Positions 9,857 to 51,055 are shown, counted from the stretch's first letter. The stretch is DNA of 64,000 bases from an uncultured Bacilli bacterium (GCA_949451605.1 CASTSB010000005.1:1096-65095); one strand, 5' to 3'. Notes: generated from the letters alone by a model not told the origin. Numbers and translations are program-made.

Positions 9857-10175
9857 ATTTTTTCTCCTCTTTTCATTTTATATTTATTTATCATAATAAA
9901 AGTACACGAGACTTTTCTTACCATAAAACACCTCCTAAATAAACAAAAAAGAATGATACCTAAGGAGTGCATAAAGCACGGTACCATCCTTTTATTAACT
10001 TAATTACATAACGGTATTACCCGAGGCCTAAGCCTAGTCTATAGAGTAGACAAATAAGACATTCAAGATCGTTTTCACCAACCACGAACTCTCTACGTAG
10101 AAAAATCTTATTATTAGTTCTAATAATCGACTTCTGTTTATATTCTACCCGATTTATTATAAAATATCAAGTTTT
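9857..10175 (-). promoter_or_regulatory. T-box riboswitch leader of serS with intrinsic terminator
   Basis: Minus strand reads AAGGAUGGUACCGUGC (T-box consensus AGGGUGGNACCGCG) at 9976..9991. This overlaps a 10-bp terminator helix (ggatggtacc/ggtatcattc, two G-U pairs) followed by UUCUUUUUUG. Confidence 0.75.
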
Positions 10176-10889
10176 TTATTCACAAACAGATTCTCCCTCA
10201 GGATAAGGGACCTCTTCTAACTCTTTTAAAGCACTTTTCATTTTATCTTTATCATAGATAATATCTTTAAAACCATATTTTCCATCACTTACACTAACAA
10301 CATAATTATGACTACCATCTGGATTATCTATAATTTGAATTGCACCTTGAAAATAATCAAAAGTATAAAAAGAAAATAATGTTGATACATAATCAGCAGA
10401 ACTATAAAATATAAAGTACTTTTTTCCATCATTAGTCTTTGTAAGACATCCTGCAATAGACGGATCGTCATCTAACTTTTCTACTATTTTAGTAATTTGA
10501 TTAACATACATTGTCTTTCTAAAATTATCAAAAATATTCATTACACTTTTATAATTAATTATTAATACAATTATAATAACAACAAAAAGCAAAGTTAACA
10601 CTTTATTTACTGTGGTATAATTTTTTTCCTGTTTGCTGATTCCATTATCATCAAGTTTAGTTAATCTTATATCTTTTCTTTTTGCTTCTTTTTCTTCTTC
10701 CTTTTTCTTAAGCTTCTTACCAAGAATAACAAAAGGCTTCATCGAATTATTATCTTTATTTAAAAAATTAAGTTCTCCACAATGCATACAGCATCTCCAT
10801 GATTTTTTCATAGGAGCACCACATTTAGGACACTTAATCATTTCTTCACTTTCTTCTTGTTTTATATTATTTTCCACTTCATTATGCAT
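10176..10889 (-). CDS. zinc-ribbon / single-TM / extracellular-domain protein
   Basis: CPKCGAPM...CMHCGE, K/E-rich linker, TM helix LTLLFVVIIIVLII, C-terminal domain. Confidence 0.5.
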   Translation of the reverse strand: MHNEVENNIKQEESEEMIKCPKCGAPMKKSWRCCMHCGELNFLNKDNNSMKPFVILGKKLKKKEEEKEAKRKDIRLTKLDDNGISKQEKNYTTVNKVLTLLFVVIIIVLIINYKSVMNIFDNFRKTMYVNQITKIVEKLDDDPSIAGCLTKTNDGKKYFIFYSSADYVSTLFSFYTFDYFQGAIQIIDNPDGSHNYVVSVSDGKYGFKDIIYDKDKMKSALKELEEVPYPEGESVCE

Positions 10890-33017: not shown

Positions 33018-33115
33018 TATTTTTTTTAATCTAAACTCTTATAAAAGTCTTTAATATGTCTAAAAAGCTCTTTAATTTTAATCGGATTCAGTTATATTAT
33101 TATCCTAAATAATAA
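33018..33115 (-). pseudogene. orphan 3'-terminal remnant of a third copy of the 151/155-aa paralog family
   Basis: About 85 percent DNA identity to 33884..33975. With a 1-nt deletion it encodes ...KIKELFRHIKDFYKSLD*, matching the C-termini of the two intact paralogs. Confidence 0.5.
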
Positions 33116-33240
33116 TATAAAAGAGTTCCTTTCTTCAATTTAAGAAGACATAATACTAAAAATTATTCAAAATGCTTAATAAAATGAAAAAAACTCTATT
33201 TTATACAAAAATATATTATAATAATTTAAAGGTGAAGAAA

Positions 33241-33807
33241 ATGAATAAATTTTTCGAATCAAAATTTACATTAATAACAATAATCTTATTATGCTTTTTA
33301 AGTAATTGGTATAAAGATAATATATCCTTAATATTTTATATCATAATTAGATTAATATTAATTATTTTATGCATGTATTTTTTTTACAAATTATATAAAA
33401 AAAGTTTTACATTAAAAAACAAAATCATCACATCTTTTATATTTATTATTACTTTATTTCTATTTTTTTATGATTTTAGATTAACAAAAACTAAAATTGA
33501 ACTAAATATTTTTAAAAATCAAAGAAATATAATTATTCAAAAAATTAAAAACAATGAATTTAAATATTATTATAAGAACAATATTAAATTGTCCAAATAT
33601 AAATATACTTCTAATGATGGTGAGATTTATGTATATAAAAATGATACTGAAGGACAAGTTATTTCCTTTTGGATATATCGTGGTTTAATGAGTGATTCAA
33701 TTCAACTAATTTATACAACAGATAAAGATTTATTAGAAAAAAATATAAAAAACATTAATAAAAGCATTAAGTTAAATAAAAATTGGTTTTATATTACAAC
33801 TAAATAA
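33241..33807 (+). CDS. small polytopic membrane protein with Y/K-rich tail
   Basis: RBS aaaggtgaag. Three hydrophobic helices, then a soluble tail. Confidence 0.4.
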   Translation: MNKFFESKFTLITIILLCFLSNWYKDNISLIFYIIIRLILIILCMYFFYKLYKKSFTLKNKIITSFIFIITLFLFFYDFRLTKTKIELNIFKNQRNIIIQKIKNNEFKYYYKNNIKLSKYKYTSNDGEIYVYKNDTEGQVISFWIYRGLMSDSIQLIYTTDKDLLEKNIKNINKSIKLNKNWFYITTK

Positions 33808-33883: not shown

Positions 33884-34351
33884 TTAATCTAAACTCTTAT
33901 AAAAATCTTCAATATGTCTAAAAAACTCTTTATTTTTAAAATCGGACTCAGTTATATTATTATCCTCAGCAAACATATAAAGAAATTCCATCCATGAATA
34001 ATCTTTTGCTTTAATAGCCTTTTCTGTAGCCTCTTCAAAGCTACTAACCAAAACATCTCTAGGTAAAGTAGATAATAATTCCATAATTACATCTGCTCCA
34101 GGCCAATTAATATCTTGTAACCAATAATACAATTCAGGTATAACATCTTTCACTCTAGGATAGCCTCTTAACAATAGTACTCTAGCTTTATAATGCCATC
34201 TCCAATTAGCACGCTCATCCATTATGAACTTTCTGTTATCATAATCTTTAGCATTTACCAATAATTTAACATTTTCTTCTTGTATTTTCTCAGGCAATAC
34301 AGAATACATTATATCATTATAAGCTTTATCAGCTGCTTTCATTTTTATCAC
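33884..34351 (-). CDS. cytoplasmic immunity-like protein, paralog A
   Basis: 155 aa. ARVLLLRGYPRVKDVIPELYYWLQDINWPGADVIMELLSTLPRDVLVSSFEEA shared with 34400..34855. Confidence 0.5.
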   Translation of the reverse strand: MIKMKAADKAYNDIMYSVLPEKIQEENVKLLVNAKDYDNRKFIMDERANWRWHYKARVLLLRGYPRVKDVIPELYYWLQDINWPGADVIMELLSTLPRDVLVSSFEEATEKAIKAKDYSWMEFLYMFAEDNNITESDFKNKEFFRHIEDFYKSLD

Positions 34352-34399
34352 CTCTTTTTATAAAAAGTATTAAATTTTTGAAATATATTCTACAAAATA

Positions 34400-34855
34400 T
34401 TAATTTAAACTAGTATAATAATCTTCAATAATCTTAAAAAGCTCTTTATTTTCAAATTCAGATTCTATTATATTATTATTTTCCGCAAATTCATAAAGAA
34501 AAAGCATCCACTCTTCATCATTCTGCTTAACAGCCCTACCCACTGCTTCTTCAAAACTGCTAACCAAAACATCTCTAGGAAATGTAGATAACAACTTCAT
34601 AATCTCATCTGCTCCAGGCCAATTAATATCTTGTAACCAATTATACAATTCAGGTATTACATTCTTTACTTTAGGATACCCTCTTAAAAGTAGTACATTG
34701 GCTCTATATCTCCAATAAAACTTTGAACCATTATTAAGAAACATATCGTTTCCATAATTTTCAGAGTTAGCTAATATTTTTACATTTTTTTCTAATTGTT
34801 TTTGAGTAAGTCTACTTGTATTAATTTCTAAATAAGCCTTTTCTTCTTTGGTCAT
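34400..34855 (-). CDS. cytoplasmic immunity-like protein, paralog B
   Basis: 151 aa. ANVLLLRGYPKVKNVIPELYNWLQDINWPGADEIMKLLSTFPRDVLVSSFEEA; high DNA identity to paralog A in the core. Confidence 0.5.
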   Translation of the reverse strand: MTKEEKAYLEINTSRLTQKQLEKNVKILANSENYGNDMFLNNGSKFYWRYRANVLLLRGYPKVKNVIPELYNWLQDINWPGADEIMKLLSTFPRDVLVSSFEEAVGRAVKQNDEEWMLFLYEFAENNNIIESEFENKELFKIIEDYYTSLN

Positions 34856-34871
34856 TAATTTACCTCACTTT

Positions 34872-35126
34872 TTACCATGCTTCCCACTTATGTATTACTT
34901 CATTTGTTTTATCATTGAATGCTGCAAATAAGAATTCCCCATGATTACAATAATCTGAATTATCACAATAGCTTTCAATAAAATATATTAAATACTCATT
35001 TTCATTTTTACCATAGGAAGGTGTATTAGAAAACAAACCATTAGGTAATCCTAGTTTGTCATCATAATCTTGCAGTTTACTAACACTCTTAGATTTATAT
35101 TTTTTATTAAATTTATCGATTGTCAT
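34872..35126 (-). CDS. small hypothetical protein
   Basis: 84-aa ORF with Cys/His cluster CDNSDYCNHGEF. Confidence 0.3.
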   Translation of the reverse strand: MTIDKFNKKYKSKSVSKLQDYDDKLGLPNGLFSNTPSYGKNENEYLIYFIESYCDNSDYCNHGEFLFAAFNDKTNEVIHKWEAW

Positions 35127-35165: not shown

Positions 35166-35606
35166 CTACAAAGCCCCTGGAGAAAAAATAAAGTGAACTT
35201 TTTCCACAGAATTTGGAATTTCGTCAGGAAAAGCTTTCAAATATGAACCACGAACAATGTCTTTATAATATTTTACATCAGTAATTGGATTTTCAGCCAA
35301 TTCAAATGAACATATAAACATCCCACTTAAATAATAAGCTGGCAAAAAGAAAGTCAAAATAAAAGATATTATTGATAACAAAATCTGCGACTTCCGTATG
35401 CTACATTTAAAACAACAAATTATCAAAAGTTGAAAAAATATTAAAAATGGTAAATAAGCAAATATCAAGATTTTTACTCTTGTATTAGTTGAATAATATT
35501 TACTTAAACAAAAAAATATACAACCAATAGCTAATGATATAATTGTTAAAGCTAAAAGAAAAATAAATAATATTACTTTTTTTCTATTCCATTCTTCTTT
35601 TTTCAA
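35166..35606 (-). CDS. four-TM small membrane protein (possible membrane immunity protein)
   Basis: 146 aa, four hydrophobic helices rich in Cys/Phe. Confidence 0.4.
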   Translation of the reverse strand: MKKEEWNRKKVILFIFLLALTIISLAIGCIFFCLSKYYSTNTRVKILIFAYLPFLIFFQLLIICCFKCSIRKSQILLSIISFILTFFLPAYYLSGMFICSFELAENPITDVKYYKDIVRGSYLKAFPDEIPNSVEKVHFIFSPGAL

Positions 35607-35738
35607 AATAGTTCACTTCCGAATACATTAACAATATAATTATACCACAACTTTATGCTTATACAATTTGAATACATAATTTTGTTAAAATATTCTTTTT
35701 CAATATTACATCTGATATAATAAAATTAGGTGATTAAA

Positions 35739-36803
35739 ATGTGTAAAACTTTAACTAATAAAAAACACAAAAATATTGATTATTCAAATCTTTCATATGA
35801 AAATTCAAATTTCATATTTGATGAGTTATACAATGACTTCAAAAAAAATCCATTAAGCTTAAAAATTATTAAAGGATATATAATAATATTTATAATTAAT
35901 TTTTTAACTTATTATCTTATAAATCTAATAATAAAACAGAAACTGGAATTATCAATTACCATTATCATTTTTATTTCTATCTTAAGTTTATTTTTTACAG
36001 TATTTTTTAAAATTAAGGGACTTAAAAACACTTCAAAAAATTCTAATGCAAAATTTTACTTTTATGATGATTTTATTTTATTAAAAAGAAAAAAAGACAT
36101 TGAATATATTTTTTTAAATGAAATAAGTACTATATCCGAATCAGAAAAATACTTTAATCTTTACAAAAATGGAAATAGATATGTTTTAATAAAAACCAAA
36201 TTAGAACAAAAATTAATAGACTATCTAAGACAATTAAAACAAAATATAAAAGAACAAAAAAAAGATAAATATTATAGTTACAAAAATTTTATTAAAAATT
36301 ATAAGAATGATTTAATATTATATTCTAAAAATGAAATAAATGAAGAAGTATTAAATAAATACTATAAAATAAAGAAAGTAAATAAAGATTTATTTATAAA
36401 TAGTTTGTTTGTTAATTTATTTAGTATTCATATTTTATTATTAATCATATACAAATTTATATTTAAATCTTACAATTTTAATATAAAAATTTATCTTTTT
36501 ATAATATTCGAAATACTTTTATTAACAATAATATTTCAAAAACACTATAAAACAAGAGATATGAAAACAATTATAAAAGATAAATTTATAGATACTTATT
36601 TGTATAACAACTTTATACTAGTAAATTTCAAAAATAAAATAATAAGATATAATTATAGTGATATTAAATATATATGTGAAAAAGATAATTTATTAGTCAT
36701 CAAATTTAAAGAATACAATTCTCAACCAATATTTTTTAATAAAAACACATTTAAAAAAGACCAATTTGACTTTTTAAATAGTAAAAAAATACATACTAAA
36801 TAA
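35739..36803 (+). CDS. membrane protein with internally duplicated TM-pair plus PH-like (YcxB/bPH-like) module
   Basis: RBS aggtga. Two repeats of (two TM helices + FYFYDDFILLKRKK... / LYNNFILVNFKNK...). Convergent with the RHS gene. Confidence 0.4.
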   Translation: MCKTLTNKKHKNIDYSNLSYENSNFIFDELYNDFKKNPLSLKIIKGYIIIFIINFLTYYLINLIIKQKLELSITIIIFISILSLFFTVFFKIKGLKNTSKNSNAKFYFYDDFILLKRKKDIEYIFLNEISTISESEKYFNLYKNGNRYVLIKTKLEQKLIDYLRQLKQNIKEQKKDKYYSYKNFIKNYKNDLILYSKNEINEEVLNKYYKIKKVNKDLFINSLFVNLFSIHILLLIIYKFIFKSYNFNIKIYLFIIFEILLLTIIFQKHYKTRDMKTIIKDKFIDTYLYNNFILVNFKNKIIRYNYSDIKYICEKDNLLVIKFKEYNSQPIFFNKNTFKKDQFDFLNSKKIHTK

Positions 36804-36871: not shown

Positions 36872-39800
36872 TTAAGAAAACAGTAGTTTTAAACCATCTG
36901 TAAACAATTTTAAAGAGTCACCAAGTGCTTTTATTGCAGTTGCAGATGTTTTTATGTAAGGATATGCAACTATAGTTAGTGGTACAAGAGCCACCGAAAA
37001 CAATGCAACCTCTTTTTTTATATTTATTCTTGTATAACCACTTACACTTTCATTATCTCCTGTCTCTATTTCAACATCTACTCCAAAATAAATATAGTCA
37101 TCATCAAAATCAAAAGTATTTTTGACAGTAGTGTCTCCTGTTGTTGAAGAAATATAAAAATCTGCAGAAGTTGGACCAACATCATAACCATAATTACCAA
37201 AATTATGATCTGCTGAAATATCGCAAGTACCAAATACGGTGGAAATAGAACCTTTATTTGTTTGAGTAACTATTTTTTTATTCTTTGAAACACCAGAAGT
37301 TTTACTTACAGCGCCTGATGGGGTAGAATTGTTACAAAAACTAGCAGTCGAACTTTTTTTATTTTTCTTTTTTGCCTGTTCTTTTACTTTTTTCTTAGTA
37401 CTTTTAGAAAATAGATTAACAATAGCTGAAAAAAGATTGTTCAAAAATTTTCCATTTCCAGTTTTATCATAATTGACTATAGGATTATTACTTACATAAG
37501 CATACAAATTATAAGATAAAATATCTTCATTTGCTCCTAATACAACATCAGGAGAAATGAATCTTCCTAATTCAGGATTATAATATCTATGATTTAAATA
37601 ATACAGACCTGTTTCTAAATCATAATAATAGCTTCTATATCTAAATGGATTAATATTTCCTATATGATTTAGATCATTTGAAATATCATTACCATTCTCG
37701 CCTTTAATAGATAATAATTTTCCCCAACTATCATATATATAGGTTACAATCTTATTACCCTCTTCATCAAAAATTCCTATAATATCATTATGTAGATTTT
37801 TTAAATAATAAAATATTTTATTATTATATTTAAAACCGATCAAACCTTCAGCATCATATAGATAATAAATTACTGTATCATTTCTATCTTCATATACAAT
37901 TTCATCATTTAATGTATAATATTTTGTCTCCAAACCATTATAAATTTTAGATTTTCTAATACCATTTTCATCATATTTAAATTTTAAATTTTTATTTTCT
38001 ATAATATTTCTTATTTCAGATAATTCAACTCCATTTTTCCATAAGAAACTATTATTATTAAACGATACAATGTTTCCTAATTGATCATAAGTGATATCAT
38101 TATCATTATAAGAAGTTAATTGATCTTCCCAATTTTCATTATTATAATTGTAATTAGAAATTTTTAATACTTCATTTGTTTGAAGATTTTTTTCTATTTT
38201 TTTAAGCAAATTCCCTGTATTATCATATAAATATTCAATTTGCGTATTTAAATCATAATTTTTTTCTTCTATTAATTCATTATAGTTATCATAATCATAC
38301 TGTTTTATCAAGCTTTCATTTAAATATATATTTTTAATATTATATACTTCATCATAATCATATTTATAAATATCATTATTAACTTGATATGAATTTATTA
38401 GATTACTGGTTCTTTTTCCATTTGAAACAAAATTACTTGCTGTATTTATAATGTTATTAATATTTTTACCAACATTTCTATTTAAGCTATCATAATTGTA
38501 ATTTACCTTTACTTCACCAAATAAAGTTGTTACTAATTTTTCTCCATCAAAATTATTTATTTGCTTATTAATATTATTATTGTATTTATATTCTTTGGTT
38601 GTTATAAAGTTTTCTGTATCATAATCATATATTACTTTAAAACTATCATTTTTATATAAGTGAAGTCTATTATTTTTATCATAATTAAACTTAGAAACAG
38701 AATCATTTGAAATGATTTTCGAAATATTACCATTAGTATCATAATAGAACTTATATTTATCATTTTCTTTTTTTATTTCATTAACCCTTTCAAAATCATC
38801 ATACAACATTTCGATATATTGATTATTTCCATATGTAATTTTCTTTAAATTTCCATTATTAGTTTCATATTCATTTTTAGTTAAAATGTTATTATTTAAG
38901 TAAATTGTATCTATATTCATAAAATTATCATAAGTTATCAAATACTCTTTATTTCCCTGAGTAATATTAGTTAATAAATTATTAGATCCATAAGTATAGT
39001 TAATTTCCGAATTATTTTGTTTAACTTTAGTACATTGACCTTTAGTATTATACTCATACTTTGTTTCTATACCTCTAGGATCTATTACTCTATTTATTTT
39101 ACCAGTCAAATTATTAACTTCATAAGATGTTTTTCTAAATATTGAATCAACTTTATCACTAATAAATCTTTCGTCTTCAGTATATTTAGTATTATTTTCT
39201 ATAAATAAGCTTTCTGGAATTTCTAAATAAAAATCTATATTTGTAAGATTATCACTATACTTATTTAATTTTACAGAATCGTCTTCTAAAACATTTAAAT
39301 ATCTAACAATATTTTTTTCTACATCATCAAACTTGATATTATAAGAACCGTCATCATTTTTTTCTAAATAAAATAAATTATTTATATTAACTTCATTTAA
39401 TATTAAAAATTCATTACTACTAGAAATACTATAATTATCTTTTAATCCATACTTAATTTTGTATCTGTCTTCATGTTTTTCTAAAAACCATATATTATTA
39501 CTACAATCACTCTCTTCCATTACAAGATTATTTAATAATGCTTTTAAATATTTTTTAGTACCTTTAAGTCTTATTTTATAAAATCCTTCTTTTATTTCAT
39601 TAACATACTTTTTAGAAATTCTATTTGCTATTGGATTTCCATTCTTATAAGTAATGCTATTTGATAAACCATTTGAGTATATTGTATTTAACAATCGATT
39701 TTTTTTATTATAATCATATTCATATATTTGACTTTTACCTAAAGTATTTGTTATACGAGTTATTTGATTTTTCTTATCATAATTTAGAGTATCTTTATTT

Positions 39801-42800
39801 TCTGATTGATCTTCAATAGATATTAAATTATTACTATCATCATAATGATACTCTTCCCTTGTAACATCTTTATAAAAAGATAGATTAGTCATATAAAAGT
39901 TATTACCACTTCCATAATTATGAAAAACAATTATAATTGATTTAAAATTTTCAATTGACTTTTCAGTATGAACAAAATGTTGCCAAGAATCACCATTTGT
40001 TATAGGTAAAGTATAAGATAATATGCAATGTCCATTATCTTCATCATATGGTTCATAAAAAATTGTTACATTACTTCCTACATTAGGGGCATATGGAATA
40101 GTTGCTTCATTTTTAAACCAAAATGATAACGTATATGTATCTCCTTCTTTTCCCTTAATATTAAATTTCTTTTCAATTGAAGTACCTAGATTATAATCCA
40201 TTTTTACTTTTAATGCTTTTGTATTATTTATATCAACAACACTTATAAAATCAGATGGATTTACATCATTATCATTTATACTTGCCTTACAAGCCCAACC
40301 TGCCAGTCCTTCCTTAAAATCAGAATTTTCTATCATATTATAATAATTTACAACTCCGCTTTTTTCTAATTGTATATCATCTATATTAATAGAACCAACT
40401 TCTAACAAAGTAACTTTTATTTTCAATTCACTAACTGCATCTTCCCCATAATAAATTGTTACATCTCCTCTTTCAAAATTACTTGATGAATCTAAAATTT
40501 CTTCACTACTTATTTCTTCACCATTATTATTTATATAACTAAGAGATATTTGTATAGGAATATCGGATTTTATGTATCCACTAAAAGTATAATAATTTTC
40601 TTTTTCCAGTGTTATTGTTTGCTCTAAAGATTTATTTGCAATTGATGACTCTACTTTTAAACTTCTAAGACCAGTATTAACATTGCTCATATCAAATGAT
40701 GTTATTATGCCATTTTCATAAGTAAAGAGATTTTCATCAGATTCAAAGCTAGTATTTTTTAAATAATTTTTTATGTATCTATTTGGTATCATTTCTGAAG
40801 TTAAACAGTTTTTATTATTGTATGATTTTTCAATAGAATAAGCATCATCTATTTGATTTCTTCCTTTTAGAATACTTCTTGAAGTAACATTTCCATATTC
40901 ATTAAAAGCTACAGTTTCCAATATTCCTTTATTATTAATTATTGAAGTTTCATATAAACTATATTCTAATTTATAAATATTACCATAAAAATCATTTGTA
41001 CCAATTTCCATTATTTTTTTTATTTTATATGGAATATTTTCATAATATTCATACTCTATTTTTAATCCACTAATATCTTTAATAGAACTTAGAATGTCCT
41101 TTTCTTTATATTCAAATATAGTACATCCATTTACTGTTTCTATATTTATTAATAAATCATTTAAAAAATTCATTTTAGTAACTGTATTATCTGAACTGGT
41201 AACTATAATGTTATCACCATAATATTGAATATTTATTTCATTATTATTTTTGTCCACAATTTTATTGATAGAATGATCTTCATTAAATTCAATTCTAATT
41301 GTATTATTATCTATATCTCTGATATCTGTTAAAAAATACTTATTAGCATTCTTTGAAAATATCATTTCATTATTATTTGCATCAATCAACTTTAATTGAC
41401 CATTTAATTCTTCAATTATAAGATCTAATCCATCTTCATCATAATAAAAATTATCAAGCTCAACATCATTATTAAAAATATTTGATTCTTTTTTATTGAA
41501 ATAATGAGTAGTTCCATCTTCATCTATATATTGATAGCTATTTTCAATTTTTTCTATTACTTGTTCTAAATTCAATTTATAACCTTTTCCAAAAAAAGTT
41601 TTATTATTAAGAACAACATCATTGGTATTGTAAATAAGCTTTAATGAAGCTGGCATTACCCCACCTATAGTTTTTCCTAAATCAAAAATAGTAGTTAAAT
41701 TTCCTGTATGGGTATTTACATAAGCTTTTCCATTGGAAAATGATTGTTCTTTATAATCCCAATAGCTCTCTATTCCATTATTATTTCTATATTTAATTAT
41801 AAAAACAGGCTTTGGATTACCACTTATAGTATTATCTTTTGAAAAGAATAAAGGATAATTATCGTTAATATAATTTTCATTACAAGATTTTATCATAATT
41901 CCATAATTTGGAGTATCCTCATACCATTTCTTCACTAATCCTGTGATATTCATTTCTATCGGATATGCATCGATAACATTATTAACCATAGTTGATCTAT
42001 AAGTAGGCCCTATATATTCAACTCTAGGATCATATTTATTATGCAAATTATCCCAACTTGCATCACTTTCAGACCAGTTAGATGTCATTCTATGTATTTC
42101 TACTAAATGCTCATATGGATTATCAGAATTATTTGATCCAATACAAGGAGTCAAATTTATAGATGCATCAATTATTTCATATCCTGTTCCAATTATAGGC
42201 AAGTCAAATTTTATTAAAGTTCTATTGACCCTATTTTGTCCATTTACCTTTTCTACTCCAGCTACTAAATATCCTAATTTTCCCTTATCATCATTACTAT
42301 CTCCTGGATAAATATAAGTATCAGTTAAAGTAATGTTCTGACTTTCATTTGTAATAGTTGGATCTACATATACAGGATAAACTACATCCTCCCTACTTAG
42401 CCAATTCTTATCAAGTATTACTTTTATTTGATATTTATCATCAACTAGTAACAACTTATAATTAACATTAGTACATCTCATACCAGATGCATCTTCCATA
42501 AAAGGTTTATCAATAGTAAAAATTACCATCTCATCATTTTTCGCAACAATTAAATCATCTTCTTGTACTAAATCCAAATTAGTATCTACAACAAATGTAA
42601 ATTCGCTATAATTATCATTTTTAAGTATCAATGTTTCTTTAATTTTATTAGATAATGTTTGATATTCTATATCGACACCATCATAAATATTAGTGTATAA
42701 AATATCTTTAAATATTTTTGACTTAGTATGCTTCTTTAATATTTCTGAATCATTCGCATATTTTAGTTTTAAATCAATATAATACTTTCCCTTTGCCATT

Positions 42801-43027
42801 TTAACTAAAGAATTTTTACCATTACTTTTAAAAGTAACTCTATAATCATTCTTCTTATTTCTATATATATTTTTCCTTTTTTCTAAAGTATTATCTATTT
42901 CTTCATATTTACCATTTTTTAGATAATGAATATCACTATCATAAATTTTAGCAAGAATAGTTCCATCTTTTTGTAAAAAGTGTTTTTCTCTAGGTTTTCT
43001 TTTTTCAATTAATTCAATTTCATCCAC
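36872..43027 (-). CDS. RHS/YD-repeat polymorphic toxin (2051 aa) with unrecognised 192-aa C-terminal domain
   Basis: GTG start. DNRLRE-like domain (GQNRVNRTLIKFDL), two CBM4/9-like modules, many YD repeats (YDxxGNL/YxYDxxNRL), and RHS core RYYNPELGRFISPDVV...LYAYVSNNPIVNYDKTGNG. The CT has no recognisable motif. Confidence 0.85.
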   Translation of the reverse strand: MDEIELIEKRKPREKHFLQKDGTILAKIYDSDIHYLKNGKYEEIDNTLEKRKNIYRNKKNDYRVTFKSNGKNSLVKMAKGKYYIDLKLKYANDSEILKKHTKSKIFKDILYTNIYDGVDIEYQTLSNKIKETLILKNDNYSEFTFVVDTNLDLVQEDDLIVAKNDEMVIFTIDKPFMEDASGMRCTNVNYKLLLVDDKYQIKVILDKNWLSREDVVYPVYVDPTITNESQNITLTDTYIYPGDSNDDKGKLGYLVAGVEKVNGQNRVNRTLIKFDLPIIGTGYEIIDASINLTPCIGSNNSDNPYEHLVEIHRMTSNWSESDASWDNLHNKYDPRVEYIGPTYRSTMVNNVIDAYPIEMNITGLVKKWYEDTPNYGIMIKSCNENYINDNYPLFFSKDNTISGNPKPVFIIKYRNNNGIESYWDYKEQSFSNGKAYVNTHTGNLTTIFDLGKTIGGVMPASLKLIYNTNDVVLNNKTFFGKGYKLNLEQVIEKIENSYQYIDEDGTTHYFNKKESNIFNNDVELDNFYYDEDGLDLIIEELNGQLKLIDANNNEMIFSKNANKYFLTDIRDIDNNTIRIEFNEDHSINKIVDKNNNEINIQYYGDNIIVTSSDNTVTKMNFLNDLLINIETVNGCTIFEYKEKDILSSIKDISGLKIEYEYYENIPYKIKKIMEIGTNDFYGNIYKLEYSLYETSIINNKGILETVAFNEYGNVTSRSILKGRNQIDDAYSIEKSYNNKNCLTSEMIPNRYIKNYLKNTSFESDENLFTYENGIITSFDMSNVNTGLRSLKVESSIANKSLEQTITLEKENYYTFSGYIKSDIPIQISLSYINNNGEEISSEEILDSSSNFERGDVTIYYGEDAVSELKIKVTLLEVGSINIDDIQLEKSGVVNYYNMIENSDFKEGLAGWACKASINDNDVNPSDFISVVDINNTKALKVKMDYNLGTSIEKKFNIKGKEGDTYTLSFWFKNEATIPYAPNVGSNVTIFYEPYDEDNGHCILSYTLPITNGDSWQHFVHTEKSIENFKSIIIVFHNYGSGNNFYMTNLSFYKDVTREEYHYDDSNNLISIEDQSENKDTLNYDKKNQITRITNTLGKSQIYEYDYNKKNRLLNTIYSNGLSNSITYKNGNPIANRISKKYVNEIKEGFYKIRLKGTKKYLKALLNNLVMEESDCSNNIWFLEKHEDRYKIKYGLKDNYSISSSNEFLILNEVNINNLFYLEKNDDGSYNIKFDDVEKNIVRYLNVLEDDSVKLNKYSDNLTNIDFYLEIPESLFIENNTKYTEDERFISDKVDSIFRKTSYEVNNLTGKINRVIDPRGIETKYEYNTKGQCTKVKQNNSEINYTYGSNNLLTNITQGNKEYLITYDNFMNIDTIYLNNNILTKNEYETNNGNLKKITYGNNQYIEMLYDDFERVNEIKKENDKYKFYYDTNGNISKIISNDSVSKFNYDKNNRLHLYKNDSFKVIYDYDTENFITTKEYKYNNNINKQINNFDGEKLVTTLFGEVKVNYNYDSLNRNVGKNINNIINTASNFVSNGKRTSNLINSYQVNNDIYKYDYDEVYNIKNIYLNESLIKQYDYDNYNELIEEKNYDLNTQIEYLYDNTGNLLKKIEKNLQTNEVLKISNYNYNNENWEDQLTSYNDNDITYDQLGNIVSFNNNSFLWKNGVELSEIRNIIENKNLKFKYDENGIRKSKIYNGLETKYYTLNDEIVYEDRNDTVIYYLYDAEGLIGFKYNNKIFYYLKNLHNDIIGIFDEEGNKIVTYIYDSWGKLLSIKGENGNDISNDLNHIGNINPFRYRSYYYDLETGLYYLNHRYYNPELGRFISPDVVLGANEDILSYNLYAYVSNNPIVNYDKTGNGKFLNNLFSAIVNLFSKSTKKKVKEQAKKKNKKSSTASFCNNSTPSGAVSKTSGVSKNKKIVTQTNKGSISTVFGTCDISADHNFGNYGYDVGPTSADFYISSTTGDTTVKNTFDFDDDYIYFGVDVEIETGDNESVSGYTRINIKKEVALFSVALVPLTIVAYPYIKTSATAIKALGDSLKLFTDGLKLLFS

Positions 43028-43035
43028 ATTATCAC

Positions 43036-43575
43036 CTACTTAACTCTTTTCCACATATTAACACTTAAATATGGTGGCATATGATCAATAGGTTGTTCAT
43101 TTGTTAATTCTGCATCAGCTAAGCAAATATTAGCCCAACCATTCTGCATGCTATTATTAGTACAAGAATGTTTTCCAGATACTATAAGACGTTCTACAAC
43201 ACGTGGTGGAAGATTTTCATTTCTAATAATATGGCTAACTCTACCTCCACTAGTACCTTCTTTATAGTCATCACTTGATGCTAGGAGGAATTTTCCATTT
43301 ATGGCTTCCCACTCTCCTCCAAAATAAACATTTGGATTAGTATTTTGAACACTAATATAAATTGAACCTACAGGATAAATCATATTTAATATGGCATCAC
43401 TTGCTAAAGATAAACTATTACAAGTTAAACTATTAACTACCAAATTTCCTTGATCATCCAATTCAAATTTGTTATCCAAAGAAGTAATACAAGATACATT
43501 TAAATTGTTTACTTCCAAGTTTAAATTATCGCCTTCTTTTGTGAAAGCATTCTCAATATTTTCTAATTGAGTCAT
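43036..43575 (-). CDS. phage-tail-collar-domain (MdpB-like) protein
   Basis: IYPVGSIYISVQNTNPNVYFGGEWEAINGKFLLASSDDYKEGTSGGRVSHIIRNENLPP follows the Collar-domain pattern. Its TAG stop lies 8 nt before the RHS start. Confidence 0.55.
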   Translation of the reverse strand: MTQLENIENAFTKEGDNLNLEVNNLNVSCITSLDNKFELDDQGNLVVNSLTCNSLSLASDAILNMIYPVGSIYISVQNTNPNVYFGGEWEAINGKFLLASSDDYKEGTSGGRVSHIIRNENLPPRVVERLIVSGKHSCTNNSMQNGWANICLADAELTNEQPIDHMPPYLSVNMWKRVK

Positions 43576-43709
43576 TTTATCGCCTCTTTCCTTTTTTTGA
43601 GATTTTCACATCTCATGGTAACTTATTAGGAAAGACTTTTTTAGACAAATAAAAACACCCAATATTCGGATGATTTATTTTTAATAACATTTTTTTAAAT
43701 TATAAACAT

Positions 43710-48164: not shown

Positions 48165-48175
48165 TCTTATCACCT

Positions 48176-48225
48176 GCTTCCTATTATATCAATTAAACAT
48201 TTAAAAATAAAGAAAAAGGCAATAT
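48176..48225 (-). promoter_or_regulatory. candidate sigma-A promoter for ffh
   Basis: Extended -10 TGaTATAAT on the minus strand at 48183..48191, about 12 nt before the RBS. Confidence 0.3.
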
Positions 48226-48400
48226 ATTTATATAAAGATTCATACGAAAAAAATATTAATTACTATTTTTTACTATTTTGCTATTTCTCTATTGTATTTT
48301 TTTTAGATGTACTTTATACTGTGAATAGAGATTTTATCTAAGACAAAGTTAGGTGATACCTCCACGAAACTTGAAATATGGTTTTAAGGAGGTGATTCTT

Positions 48401-48508
48401 ATGCAGAGACTATTATTTCTTACAAAATGCATAAATACTTTTTATGGAGTATTTAATAATAGGTTTTGCTATATTAGTAGTTATTCTACTAATGATTATA
48501 GCAGTTAA
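48401..48508 (+). CDS. small ORF (35 aa) with near-perfect RBS inside the element
   Basis: aaggaggtgattcttATG; MQRLLFLTKCINTFYGVFNNRFCYISSYSTNDYSS. Confidence 0.3.
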   Translation: MQRLLFLTKCINTFYGVFNNRFCYISSYSTNDYSS

Positions 48509-48515
48509 AAAATAA
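48444..48515 (+). CDS. alternative-frame 23-aa hydrophobic peptide (type-I-toxin-like)
   Basis: MEYLIIGFAILVVILLMIIAVKK. No SD. A 15-bp-stem hairpin (48532..48565) lies 17 nt downstream. Confidence 0.2.
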   Translation: MEYLIIGFAILVVILLMIIAVKK

Positions 48516-48880
48516 CGTTAAAGCAAAAGAAAGACACCTAACTTCAGCCATGAAGTAAGGTGTCTACACAAAAAAATATTGTGGAGATAATACCTAACGA
48601 GCAAAAATTAGATAAAATCTCTTTTATATTTTATGCAAAAAACATAAAATAATACATTTCTAATTAAGAAATAACTCTTATTATATAAGGCTATTCTTAA
48701 AAAGTCAACAAACAAACGGAACGAACAAAGTTTAAAACATCAGCTAGTAAACTACTACCGTTCTAACTTAATTATAGCTATGTCAACTAAAAATTTCAAC
48801 TGTTATTTTAATAATAAATATGAAAATTTCAATAAATTGTATTTAACTATAAAGAAAAAGAGCTATAACTCTTTTCTTTT

Positions 48881-51055
48881 TTATTTTTGATCAACAAGTG
48901 TTACAAGTGGTCTTGGTGGAGCTACTACAACTTCTGGTTGTACAGGAGCACTTGGCATTTCATTAACATTTGTGCTTGGATTTAAATTAGTTTGCTGATT
49001 ACCACCAAATAAAACCTTATCTAATTCTGAAGAATTATTATCTTCAAAACTATTTTCAAAATCATCATCTTCATCTAAATCAAGTTTAGGTAATGAATTT
49101 TGATTTGTAGTTACATTAGATATTATATCTTCCATCGAAGTTTGATTATTAATGTCGTTAACTGGAGTCTCCATTTCAGGAATTGCCTCAATTCCTGCAT
49201 TTACATTCTTCTTAGTAGCAGTCATATAGTCATAATCACTTACTTTTGGAACTACAGGTGCTGGCTCTGCTACCTTTTCTTCTTCATAAATTTCTCCAGG
49301 TGCACGCCCATTCCAAATAGTAACAACGTCTACATTACCACTCCATGGAGCTGGATTTGGCATTTCCATTTTTACAATTAAAGGAATTTTAAAAGCTGTA
49401 CCAAAACCTAAACAAGTACCAGATTGTAAAGACTTCTGTTTTTCTACTATTTCATCACTAATATTTGGAACCATTTTTCTAATATATTCAACATCTACTG
49501 GATGGTTCATTTTAAATATTAAGAAATTCATACATTGAGAAATACATGTATCACTCATTTCACTTGGTCTTTGCGAAATAAGTCCAAGTAAAACTCCATA
49601 TTTACGACCTTCTTTAGCAATACGTTCAAATATATTATATCCAATCAAAAACCTATCTGTATCATTTTGAATATATCTATGAGCTTCTTCAACAACAACA
49701 TGGAAAGGAATACTACCTCTTTGTTGTAAACCCTTAGCAAATTCAAATACAAGTCTTGAATAAATCTTAGTAATTACCTTAGCAAAATCATCATCTACAT
49801 CATCTAAATTAATATTTACAATTTGATACTTAGTACCATTATCAATAATTAAAGATGACAAGTAAGATTCAAGTGGTGTATAAGTATCATATTCAAAGAA
49901 TTTAGCATATTTTCCAACTATTAATGAATGAAGTCTTACTTTAATAGTAATAGCATCACCATAAGTATTCGCATTTCTTAACCATCCTTCACTAATTAAT
50001 GCAAAGTTTAAAGCTTTCTCTAAAGTATCTAAATCATAATAAACATCTTCTTTTGGCTCATAACTATCTAGTTCACTCTTAATAAATGAAGAAATATATT
50101 CAGTAAGTAAAACACTTTCAGTAAATTGTCCTGAATTATCTATTAAGAAACAATCTCTAAATTTTCTTGTATATCCAATTCCTTGAACTGGTGCTTCCAA
50201 ATTAAACTGTGGAGTTGAACAACTAGCTAAAATTGAAAATACTTCATTTCTCTTATTAGGAGAAGTCTCATTAGTATACAAAATAGTCATAATAGCTTTT
50301 GCGATTAAATGGTTCATATATTGATTAGCATCCATTCCTTCTTGTGAAAAGATAAGTGCTAACTTTTGCATTCTTTCAATTAAAGGAAGCTGAGAATGAT
50401 TGGTACATTGTAATAATAGTGCTAAATCATCTTTATTTAATAAATAAATTGGTAATCTTAATTTTTCACCTAAATTATCTGACTCATTAGTACTAAAGAA
50501 ACGGTAATGATAATTATTATCAATTTTATTTAAATCTTTGAAAGCATTATAATACTCTCCAGATGAATCAAATAGTAATATATTTGCTTTATAAGGAAAT
50601 AATCTCTTATCTAAAAACATATTTTGAAAAAGTCTTGAAATACCACAAGATTTACCAGAACCTGAATTACCAAATATGGCAAAATGTCCTCCAAAGAAAT
50701 TATTAACATCTAAATAAGCAGGTAAATTATTATAGAAAGGACTAACTCCTAAAGGCATATAACCTTTTTCATTCTTACCTGTAATCATTGGAATTTCTGC
50801 TGGCTCTATTACTCTTACACTAGCATCAAGAGAAGGTTTACGAAGAGTTCCACCAATTAAATTTCCATTTACTATCTCACCCAAAAATCTAGCTTTAACT
50901 AACTCTCCATCTAAATTATCAACTTCCGCTAAAATCTTTTTATCCTTATCTTCAAAAACCAAATGCAAATTCATTAAGTTAATTGTCAAATGTTCTGCAT
51001 CTTTTAACTTAATGTTTGCATAATGATCACCGATATAAACTATTCTATCAAACAC
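48881..51055 (-). CDS. DUF87/HerA-FtsK-like P-loop ATPase with disordered acidic, Pro-rich C-terminal tail
   Basis: Walker A FGNSGSGKSCG, Walker B HVVVEEAHRY, and a C-terminal E/P/N-rich low-complexity region of about 150 aa. Confidence 0.65.
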   Translation of the reverse strand: MFDRIVYIGDHYANIKLKDAEHLTINLMNLHLVFEDKDKKILAEVDNLDGELVKARFLGEIVNGNLIGGTLRKPSLDASVRVIEPAEIPMITGKNEKGYMPLGVSPFYNNLPAYLDVNNFFGGHFAIFGNSGSGKSCGISRLFQNMFLDKRLFPYKANILLFDSSGEYYNAFKDLNKIDNNYHYRFFSTNESDNLGEKLRLPIYLLNKDDLALLLQCTNHSQLPLIERMQKLALIFSQEGMDANQYMNHLIAKAIMTILYTNETSPNKRNEVFSILASCSTPQFNLEAPVQGIGYTRKFRDCFLIDNSGQFTESVLLTEYISSFIKSELDSYEPKEDVYYDLDTLEKALNFALISEGWLRNANTYGDAITIKVRLHSLIVGKYAKFFEYDTYTPLESYLSSLIIDNGTKYQIVNINLDDVDDDFAKVITKIYSRLVFEFAKGLQQRGSIPFHVVVEEAHRYIQNDTDRFLIGYNIFERIAKEGRKYGVLLGLISQRPSEMSDTCISQCMNFLIFKMNHPVDVEYIRKMVPNISDEIVEKQKSLQSGTCLGFGTAFKIPLIVKMEMPNPAPWSGNVDVVTIWNGRAPGEIYEEEKVAEPAPVVPKVSDYDYMTATKKNVNAGIEAIPEMETPVNDINNQTSMEDIISNVTTNQNSLPKLDLDEDDDFENSFEDNNSSELDKVLFGGNQQTNLNPSTNVNEMPSAPVQPEVVVAPPRPLVTLVDQK

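Follow-up and report, generated by a model that had tools for sequence, protein, structure and literature searches.

The window analysed here, 64,000 nucleotides of DNA from an uncultured Bacilli bacterium (GCA_949451605.1 CASTSB010000005.1:1096-65095), carries between positions 36872 and 43575 two adjacent genes, one for a small protein related to the tips of phage tail fibres (here called COL) and one for a large RHS toxin without a recognisable export signal. We read this pair as a module of phage origin, with the fibre-tip protein directing the toxin to its target and lysis setting it free, a reading to which we assign a probability of roughly one half. The two genes form an operon, the toxin is leaderless, the pairing is conserved in a large family from uncultured low-GC Bacilli of the gut, COL is of phage ancestry and mosaic, and lysis genes are frequently linked to the pair.

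Both genes are on the minus strand. The 179-aa open reading frame (ORF) of COL, which starts with ATG, spans 43036-43575 and is followed at 36872-43027 by the 2051-aa RHS ORF, which starts with GTG. In the direction of transcription the junction consists of the TAG stop codon (43038-43036), the sequence AGGTGA (43037-43032), the spacer TAAT and the GTG (43027-43025), leaving 8 nt between the COL stop and the RHS start. An earlier note on this DNA had described the coordinates, strand, lengths, GTG start, 8-nt gap and the AGGTGA over the COL stop in the same way. Gene calling done independently on three other metagenome assemblies of this organism gave the same 179-aa and 2051-aa genes. With about 25% GC, the window is very rich in A and T. 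No terminator-like site was found between COL and RHS, and the terminator-like hairpin upstream of COL (Table 1) marks the start of a separate transcription unit. A programmed frameshift joining COL to RHS, which lies in the -1 frame, was considered and rejected, as the two are separate ORFs in 57 of 57 aligned pairs. The 120 best COL homologues are 125-302 aa long, i.e. they give no evidence for COL-RHS fusions.

The conclusion that the RHS protein is leaderless is based on Kyte-Doolittle hydropathy, a Pfam search for LXG and WXG domains and an AlphaFold2 model of the N-terminal domain. Within the first 70 residues the maximum hydropathy over 12 residues is 0.44, compared with 2.0-3.4 in signal-bearing cousins. 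Pfam gave no match to an LXG or WXG domain, and there is no upstream start codon in the RHS frame, because the ORF opens at the GTG 8 nt past the COL TAG. Among 57 aligned homologues the start is conserved and no N-terminus is hydrophobic, so that the proposed lack of a signal peptide or LXG domain at any corrected start was confirmed. Residues 1-50 are the best conserved stretch of the whole protein (conservation of the N-terminal domain, 0.70 among the 57 homologues), and the model of residues 1-235 is of high quality (pLDDT 90) and all-beta from about residue 3.

The rest of the domain architecture was largely as it had been read from the sequence. Pfam and NCBIfam searches bore out the DNRLRE domain, the YD repeats (PF05593, E=8e-17; TIGR01643, E=9e-7; YD_repeat_2x was also matched), the RHS-associated core and the absence of LXG and WXG domains. 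The two proposed CBM4/9 modules fared unequally when searched alone: module 1 (residues 749-892) matched PF02018 above the cut-off (E=2.6e-6, 28.3 bits), whereas module 2 (893-1058) remained below it (E=1.4e-3, 19.5 bits). Neither wall-binding repeats (LysM or CWB; Pfam) nor SpvB, TcdB_toxin_midN or beta-propeller domains (Pfam and NCBIfam) were matched. In the core, RYYNPELGRFISPD occupies residues 1814-1827 and DKTGNG residues 1854-1859. The autoproteolysis motif is NYDKTGNG, in which the Asp and Gly of DPxGL are retained and the Pro and Leu are substituted. Many relatives carry D-x-x-G-N/E motifs, e.g. DEDGN, DKTGN, DENGN and DPTGE, and DKTGNG is therefore an ordinary variant of DPxGL in this lineage; the replacement pointed out in the earlier note is present, but it is not an anomaly. 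Judged by this motif, the RHS core is of the autoproteolytic type and contains a predicted cleavage site. An insertion in the YD shell (residues 1140-1279, 39191-39610) has a three-fold internal repeat character and no Pfam match; since signal-bearing cousins have annotated RicinB_lectin_2 domains, it is possibly a beta-trefoil lectin.

The N-terminal domain of the RHS protein is homologous to that of Bacillus phage PBC1 gp18 and its kin (tblastn, E=1e-11; phrog_37549, E=5e-12). PBC1 gp18 (NC_017976.1 13781-16972; our locus L168) is a 1063-aa YD-repeat 'virion structural protein' encoded right after the tape measure gene; its N-terminal domain is also that of the Sec-exported cousins of the window protein. 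By this homology, the shared domain links bacterial WapA-type toxins with phage tail-tip YD proteins. A Dit-like ring, which was considered on account of the Dit position of PBC1 gp18, was rejected as a model of the domain, since Foldseek found no Dit; the only likeness found with the model was a weak one to beta-sandwiches of the carbohydrate-active enzyme type (PL33 lyase, TM-score 0.49).

COL was described in the earlier note as a collar-domain protein. It is indeed a C-terminal domain of phage fibres or baseplates, but the family is Gp10_C (PF21939; E=2.2e-17, 64.7 bits with a cut-off of 27, profile positions 1-139) and not Collar (PF07484), to which neither the window protein nor four homologues gave a match even at E<=10. 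Proteins of the PF07484 / MdpB-like type resemble COL in being small, chromosomally encoded and equipped with domains derived from phage fibres, and at the level of sequence they have similar GG..H.L...P.H.H and C-terminal N-M-P-Y type motifs. COL also matches tail proteins of the PHROG collection, and the profile of its family matches the C-terminal domain of T4 gp10 (2fkk, E=2e-8) and a phage structural protein (7z47_I, E=3e-9) in the PDB. More than 1100 homologues were found, nearly all of 180-215 aa, and all those listed carry PF21939. No membrane segment or signal was detected in COL by hydropathy.

The protein has two parts. The N-terminal segment has the family consensus ..AFTK.G.NTNLEVNNLNV.CITSKNNKFELDS.GNLTV, is repeat-like (in P0028 it is duplicated) and is absent from phage fibres, where matches begin near residue 62. 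In viral contigs and sequenced phages almost only the region of COL residues ~62-178 was matched, at the extreme C-terminus of long fibres. The best annotated matches of the head are 'putative antireceptor' proteins of Lactobacillus delbrueckii phages (E=2e-20), in LL-Ku the last ~150 of 647 residues. In the LL-H member of this antireceptor family, host-range mutations in the C-terminal part alter adsorption to lipoteichoic acid (PMC3870949).

Recurrence of the pair was determined in a locus scan with one genome per species, which returned 79 COL loci. These come from uncultured low-GC metagenome-assembled genomes of gut origin, mostly labelled Bacilli or 'Tenericutes'; the sources include Candidatus Faecimonas, Scybalousia, Coprovivens and Clostridium sp. 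CAG:1000 as well as bins with other labels, e.g. Muribaculaceae. Directly downstream of COL, and on the same strand, 71 of the 79 loci encode a full-length relative of the window's RHS protein that aligns from residue 1-5, mostly within ~10-30 nt; in 57 loci the gap is mostly 8-20 nt. This frequency excludes chance adjacency. The flanking genes are otherwise not conserved among the COL loci, which argues that the pair forms a unit of its own that was inserted at various places in the chromosome. The arrangement also varies. In certain loci two or three tandem COL paralogues (38-58% identical) precede RHS, and in a subfamily COL is long (350-430 aa) owing to an extra N-terminal ~170 residues; in part of these long-COL loci a gene for a ~120-aa coiled-coil protein lies between COL and RHS. 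Tandem or long COL genes are found in L021, L036, L042, L070 and L073, and in L024, L027, L029, L061, L064, L068 and L072.

The association was also approached from the RHS side. An exhaustive HMMER search with RHS residues 1-235 returned 4258 proteins (a word-indexed search had given only 10 fragments). The closest ~100 clusters at 50% identity have members of mostly 2000-2100 aa; the N-terminal domain starts at residue 1-5 in most of these clusters and 15-60 residues further in for a few. In more distant clusters it begins at residue 40-130, behind a classical Sec signal peptide. A Gp10_C gene was present immediately upstream of three out of three leaderless RHS genes that had been picked via RHS and not via COL, and of none of five signal-peptide-bearing cousins. 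In the sampled loci, signal peptide and COL gene are inversely related. Judging from these sequences, the family looks derived from Sec-exported WapA-type toxins, the loss of the signal peptide accompanying the gain of a fibre-tip partner. Taken together, the 71 of 79 loci and the reciprocal checks show that the genes adjoin more often than expected by chance; adjacency at chance level, which the earlier note had named as a refutation, was not observed.

Among the genes around the pair, several clusters recur: M23 peptidases matching phage endolysins, Phage_holin_4_1 proteins (TcdE family, E=7.5e-38), phrog_443 holins, XhlA-like and small phage membrane proteins, a sigma-70 region 4 factor, an ArpU-like activator and helix-turn-helix (HTH) regulators. 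At least one lysis gene lies within a few genes of 36 of the 71 pairs, often in the company of phage-type regulators, and a lysin occurs together with a holin-like gene at 21; M23 endolysin-like genes are near 31 pairs and holin-like genes near 26. Typical orders on one strand are HTH-XhlA-holin-M23-COL-RHS-immunity and sigma-COL-RHS-immunity-tm-tm-M23 (tm, transmembrane protein). The islands with lysis genes mostly lack phage structural genes, and several are situated among housekeeping genes. Two loci deviate from these orders. L025 (around 10001-10528) has sigma-COL-tm-tm-M23 endolysin and no RHS gene, and in L071 the COL gene is located after an RHS-immunity-tm-tm-M23 unit. These loci suggest that a fibre gene plus a lysis cassette was the ancestral unit that received RHS genes.

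Prophage tail genes adjoin COL in four of the 79 loci. L041 has COL genes without RHS, and in L045, L050 and L062 the COL-RHS pair stands immediately behind the tail module and lysis cassette of a prophage. These prophages encode, in this order, a Tal-like protein, a ~650-aa fibre with Gp10_C at its end, small membrane proteins and an M23 endolysin. With the fibre tip of its own neighbouring prophage the COL head shares 68% identity in L050 and 60% in L062, compared with an average of 55% between the COL heads of different loci. The two parts of COL also differ in how they follow the toxin. Distances in the N-terminal segment (residues 5-52) are correlated with RHS distances (Mantel rho 0.67, p<=0.0005), whereas distances in the head are not (rho 0.15, p=0.07); the difference in rho is 0.52 (95% confidence interval 0.33-0.68). 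Such a mosaic pattern of sequences is that expected of an RHS-bound adaptor with an exchanged head.

The following scheme would accommodate these observations. An ancestral Sec-exported RHS toxin would have lost its signal peptide and become attached to the terminal part of a phage late operon, in which a fibre gene is followed by a lysis cassette. The toxin would fold in the cytoplasm and exit by way of holin and endolysin, either through lysis of a subpopulation or by a non-lytic route resembling the type 10 secretion system (T10SS). COL, probably as a trimer, would use its conserved N-terminal adaptor to dock on RHS, and the exchangeable head would be the receptor-binding tip by which the complex is steered to the envelopes of related bacteria. 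The aspartyl autoprotease of RHS would then free the C-terminal toxin, and a convergently encoded YcxB-like membrane protein would be the likely immunity factor. Since the window itself is without lysis genes, release there would rely on genes elsewhere, e.g. in a prophage. Going further, and with a probability somewhat below that of the scheme itself, the pairs may be RHS bacteriocins of a 'fibre-guided' type and so constitute a class of polymorphic toxin trafficking that has not been described before. A leaderless RHS cocoon toxin would be released by a domesticated phage lysis cassette and aimed at competitors by a separate, swappable receptor-binding tip that docks on it with a dedicated N-terminal adaptor. 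Such a bacteriocin would amount to what is left of a phage late operon without tail and head, and it would be common among uncultured Bacilli of the gut. As to what had been proposed earlier, the export puzzle is real, and the recurrence of the pair, the leaderless starts and the fibre family all support COL as an accessory for delivery or receptor binding or as a marker of an unrecognised export route. The partner-less signal-bearing cousins, the lysis cassettes at about half of the pairs and the exchange of heads with prophage tips are new evidence that makes this interpretation more precise.

A number of observations weigh against targeting by COL and release by lysis. No homologues of the lysis and regulator clusters were found in the 64-kb window (tblastn, best E=0.04), and half of the related loci have no lysis genes within ~10 kb, which means that linkage to lysis genes is not a requirement. 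The frequency of lysis genes was set against five control loci and a rough expectation only. The conserved N-terminus of RHS is conserved also in the signal-bearing cousins that have no COL, and hence is not a docking motif specific for COL. Correlated COL and RHS distances may stem from co-inheritance instead of binding. The COL of the window has lost the HxH typical of the family: at residues ~116-127 (43195-43230) the motif M-P-S-H-x-H is replaced by LPPRVV, with PPRVV in the position of HxH. The AlphaFold2 model of the COL monomer, made with a 25-sequence alignment, was too poor for a fold search (pLDDT 54). The weakest points are the missing lysis genes in the window and at half of the related loci, and the contact between COL and RHS, which, like the release, is a predicted one. 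As a separate observation, the closest COL relatives, P0002 and P0003, share the replacement (LPPRVV / LPSRVM) and a shortened variable insert, and most others keep HxH.

Of the alternatives, the one that survives best, unlikely as it seems to us, is that COL is not a targeting subunit but assists the folded RHS protein, as chaperone or export adaptor, in leaving the cell by a non-lytic route that has escaped recognition, for example through a holin-type channel or another translocon. Holin-dependent non-lytic secretion has been documented (PMC9527704), and a role of this kind would agree with the mutual exclusion of signal peptide and COL gene in the sampled loci, with the covariation of the COL N-terminus and RHS, and with the half of the loci, the window included, that have no linked lysis genes. 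However, a head exchanged with prophages and provided with a hypervariable loop fits outward receptor recognition better than it fits an intracellular chaperone, COL has neither a membrane segment nor a signal, and no conserved translocon gene accompanies the pair.

Somewhat lower we rank the possibility that the two proteins are structural parts of a phage or tailocin particle, with RHS at the tail tip like the YD-repeat protein of Bacillus phages, COL as its fibre and the remaining tail genes elsewhere, so that the particle would deliver the toxin; this also appears improbable. The homology of the RHS N-terminal domain to PBC1 gp18, which is encoded after the tape measure in the Dit position (PMC9128512), the fit of one siphovirus protein to the model of the domain (TM-score 0.83), the homology of COL to fibre tips and the COL-type genes next to prophage tail genes in L041, L045, L050 and L062 could be taken as signs of a particle. 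Against this, genes for tail, tape measure or capsid are missing within ~10 kb in the window and in 75 of the 79 loci, and only the lysis genes match phage DNA. An RHS gene was found beside none of 79 Gp10_C fibres in viral contigs. Even the prophage-adjacent pairs sit past the lysis cassette, outside the tail module. The fold of the N-terminal domain is not Dit-like, and polymorphic C-termini, orphan cassettes and immunity arrays typify polymorphic toxins that are free or cell-bound.

It is very unlikely that the module acts inside the producer, e.g. in abortive infection, with the fibre tip sensing phage components and RHS killing the infected cell. Its phage-related components, the missing export signal and the frequent link to prophages or lysis cassettes would be compatible with such a function, but neither protein has a PADLOC match, the CBM, DNRLRE and lectin-type modules together with the Sec-exported cousins point to extracellular carbohydrate binding, and the combination of polymorphic C-termini and immunity arrays is the hallmark of toxins used between bacteria. 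Least probable of all is export of RHS by a known route (Sec, Tat or type VIIb secretion, T7SSb) via a mis-called start or cryptic signal, with a functionally unrelated fibre-like neighbour: a HerA/FtsK-like ATPase is encoded 6 kb upstream, but it is of the HerA type (E=3e-104, 724 aa) and not EssC and is not conserved near the pair, no start exists upstream in the RHS frame, the start is conserved and the N-terminus hydrophilic in 57 homologues, there is no LXG or WXG match, the all-beta N-terminus is unlike the helical T7SS signals, and adjacency in 71 of 79 loci excludes chance.

The C-terminal part of the RHS protein and the genes downstream of it have the character of a toxin and immunity island (Table 1). 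Past residue 1858 conservation drops from ~0.6 to 0.1-0.24. The C-terminal toxin has no Pfam match and its sole homologue is in locus L017; the toxin of the window is probably membrane-active. Because L017 has a like toxin C-terminus and the same convergent gene, the YcxB-like protein is the best candidate for the immunity protein. Behind it lies a split and probably decaying gene, possibly an orphan immunity gene, whose two ORFs (35166-35606 and 34872-35126) correspond to the N- and C-terminal halves of a 248-aa membrane protein. DUF5071 genes are found directly after RHS in L061 and within the array that follows RHS in L054, which argues that they behave as immunity genes and are orphans in the window. 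Orphan RHS C-terminal cassettes are present in many loci. With its hypervariable C-terminus, such cassettes and an immunity-type array, the system is, as far as sequences tell, an RHS polymorphic toxin with a putative cognate immunity gene.

Table 1. Positions of the COL-RHS pair, its parts and the adjoining island in the window.
Feature	Position	Strand	Basis
Terminator-like hairpin with T-run, between RecX-like gene and COL	43656..43672	-	
COL, Gp10_C family, 179 aa, no signal peptide	43036..43575	-	PF21939
COL residues 1-55, family-specific segment, putative adaptor/shaft	43411..43575	-	conservation 0.64-0.77
COL residues 62-179, Gp10_C head, hypervariable loop ~131-160	43039..43392	-	PF21939 and alignment
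Junction: Shine-Dalgarno AGGTGA overlapping COL TAG, 4-nt spacer, RHS GTG	43028..43037	-	sequence inspection
WapA-type RHS polymorphic toxin, leaderless, 2051 aa	36872..43027	-	hidden Markov model matches; full-length homologues after COL in 71/79 loci
RHS residues 1-230, N-terminal all-beta domain	42338..43027	-	AlphaFold2 model, conservation
RHS residues 236-408, DNRLRE (CBM96-like)	41804..42322	-	NCBIfam NF033679, E=6e-21
RHS residues 749-892 and 893-1058, two CBM_4_9-like modules	39854..40783	-	PF02018
RHS residues 1765-1857, RHS-associated core, ends DKTGNG	37457..37735	-	TIGR03696, E=3.7e-19
RHS residues 1858-2051, polymorphic C-terminal toxin, transmembrane-like segment 2007-2025	36875..37456	-	conservation, hydropathy
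YcxB-like membrane protein, 357 aa, internally duplicated, convergent; candidate immunity	35730..36803	+	L017 counterpart 30% identity, E=1e-22; weak YcxB match
Split gene, 146-aa and 84-aa ORFs, halves of a 248-aa membrane protein intact in L025	34872..35606	-	
Two tandem DUF5071 genes, orphan immunity-type	33884..34855	-	PF16804; 79% nucleotide-identical
211-aa membrane protein; homologues follow orphan RHS C-terminal cassettes elsewhere	33172..33807	+	
3' fragment of a third DUF5071 copy	33024..33139		nucleotide comparison

The surroundings of the pair in the window are ordinary. Upstream neighbours are a RecX-like gene, rpoZ, a DUF6020 gene, ffh, the HerA-type ATPase, lgt and ylxM, and further downstream there are PrsA-like and HIT genes. 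A prophage context was considered and discarded: the neighbours are housekeeping genes and only SSB and a SpoVS-like protein match phage loci. No tail, tape-measure or capsid genes were found near the pair, no TcA-like gene or EssC was found in the window, and an Rfam scan of the window gave no matches. The gene of the 724-aa HerA-type ATPase (48881-51055, minus strand; PADLOC HerA, E=3e-104; Pfam DUF87) lies between lgt and ffh. HerA in defence systems usually has a partner gene (of the SIR2, DUF4297 or NurA type). None is evident in the window, and the 708-nt stretch after the HerA gene (48174-48880) contains no ORF of 60 aa or more (the longest has 51 aa) and no Rfam match.

How very large RHS toxins of Gram-positive bacteria leave the cell and find their targets is poorly understood, and the COL-RHS family offers a concrete, testable answer. 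Passage of the wall was called unresolved in a study of Streptococcus suis WapA (PMC12704120), and work from 2026 on teneurin-like YD proteins of bacteria remarks that signal peptides are missing from some of them, which 'may utilize alternative mechanisms' (PMC13018210). A survey of polymorphic toxin trafficking from 2012 has among its classes the type 2, 5, 6 and 7 secretion systems (T2SS, T5SS, T6SS, T7SS), Photorhabdus virulence cassettes (PVC), TcdB/TcaC and PrsW, and the word 'holin' appears nowhere in it. In the literature we found no description of leaderless RHS proteins linked to Gp10_C or to lysis cassettes in Bacillota. If release by lysis genes and targeting by COL are true, release of the holin/endolysin type would extend from host-directed toxins to inter-bacterial RHS toxins of the gut microbiota, a modular and exchangeable targeting subunit could explain the killing spectrum and permit its re-engineering, and more than 1000 Gp10_C proteins of gut metagenomes that have no annotation would be given a function.

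Among known systems, WapA of Bacillus subtilis and of S. suis (PMC12704120) shares with the window protein the YD shell, the RHS core motif and the nature of a polymorphic toxin with immunity genes. The two are homologous over the whole conserved region, and in both the N-terminal beta domain is followed by DNRLRE. In S. suis WapA, an 'unknown' N-domain and DNRLRE stand behind a signal peptide (PMC12704120). WapA differs in having a Sec signal peptide and wall-anchoring repeats, whereas the family of the window starts at the mature N-terminal domain, has no signal and has an upstream Gp10_C gene that the signal-bearing cousins lack. By its homologies, the RHS protein of the window belongs to the superfamily of RHS polymorphic toxins and is closely related to WapA; it lacks the signal peptide that defines WapA.

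Type 10 systems have in common with the COL-RHS loci large leaderless toxins encoded beside phage-derived genes for holin, endolysin and alternative sigma factors. Precedents are the Tc toxin of Yersinia entomophaga, which has an RHS cocoon (PMC10847048), and TcdA/B of Clostridioides difficile with TcdE, TcdL and TcdR (PMC3369941, PMC6200909, PMC11344133). The related loci resemble these systems in their Phage_holin_4_1 (TcdE family), M23 endolysins and sigma-like regulators. Type 10 toxins, however, have no fibre-tip partner and have eukaryotic targets, whereas the lysis genes of COL-RHS are present at only about half of the loci, are absent from the window and have a putative role in release. 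Because no holin or endolysin is linked to the pair in the window, membership in the T10SS cannot be claimed for it.

The YD-repeat tail proteins of the Bacillus cereus siphophages PBC1 (gp18), Wes44 and Carmen17 ('organisation C', PMC9128512) share with the window protein the leaderless state, the YD repeats and the homologous N-terminal domain, and the phage that encodes such a protein has a separate receptor-binding protein and a lysis cassette. The phage YD protein is nevertheless a virion component of ~1060 aa, whereas the RHS protein of the window is twice as long, has an RHS core, is a polymorphic toxin accompanied by immunity genes, and has no tail genes around it. The C-terminal domain of T4 gp10 (2fkk) and the L. 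delbrueckii antireceptor (LL-H Gp71 family, PMC3870949), finally, are homologous to the head of COL. In phage fibres, however, Gp10_C is the extreme C-terminus of the fibre, whereas COL is a stand-alone protein of 180-215 aa that has its own N-terminal ~55 residues and is encoded next to RHS.

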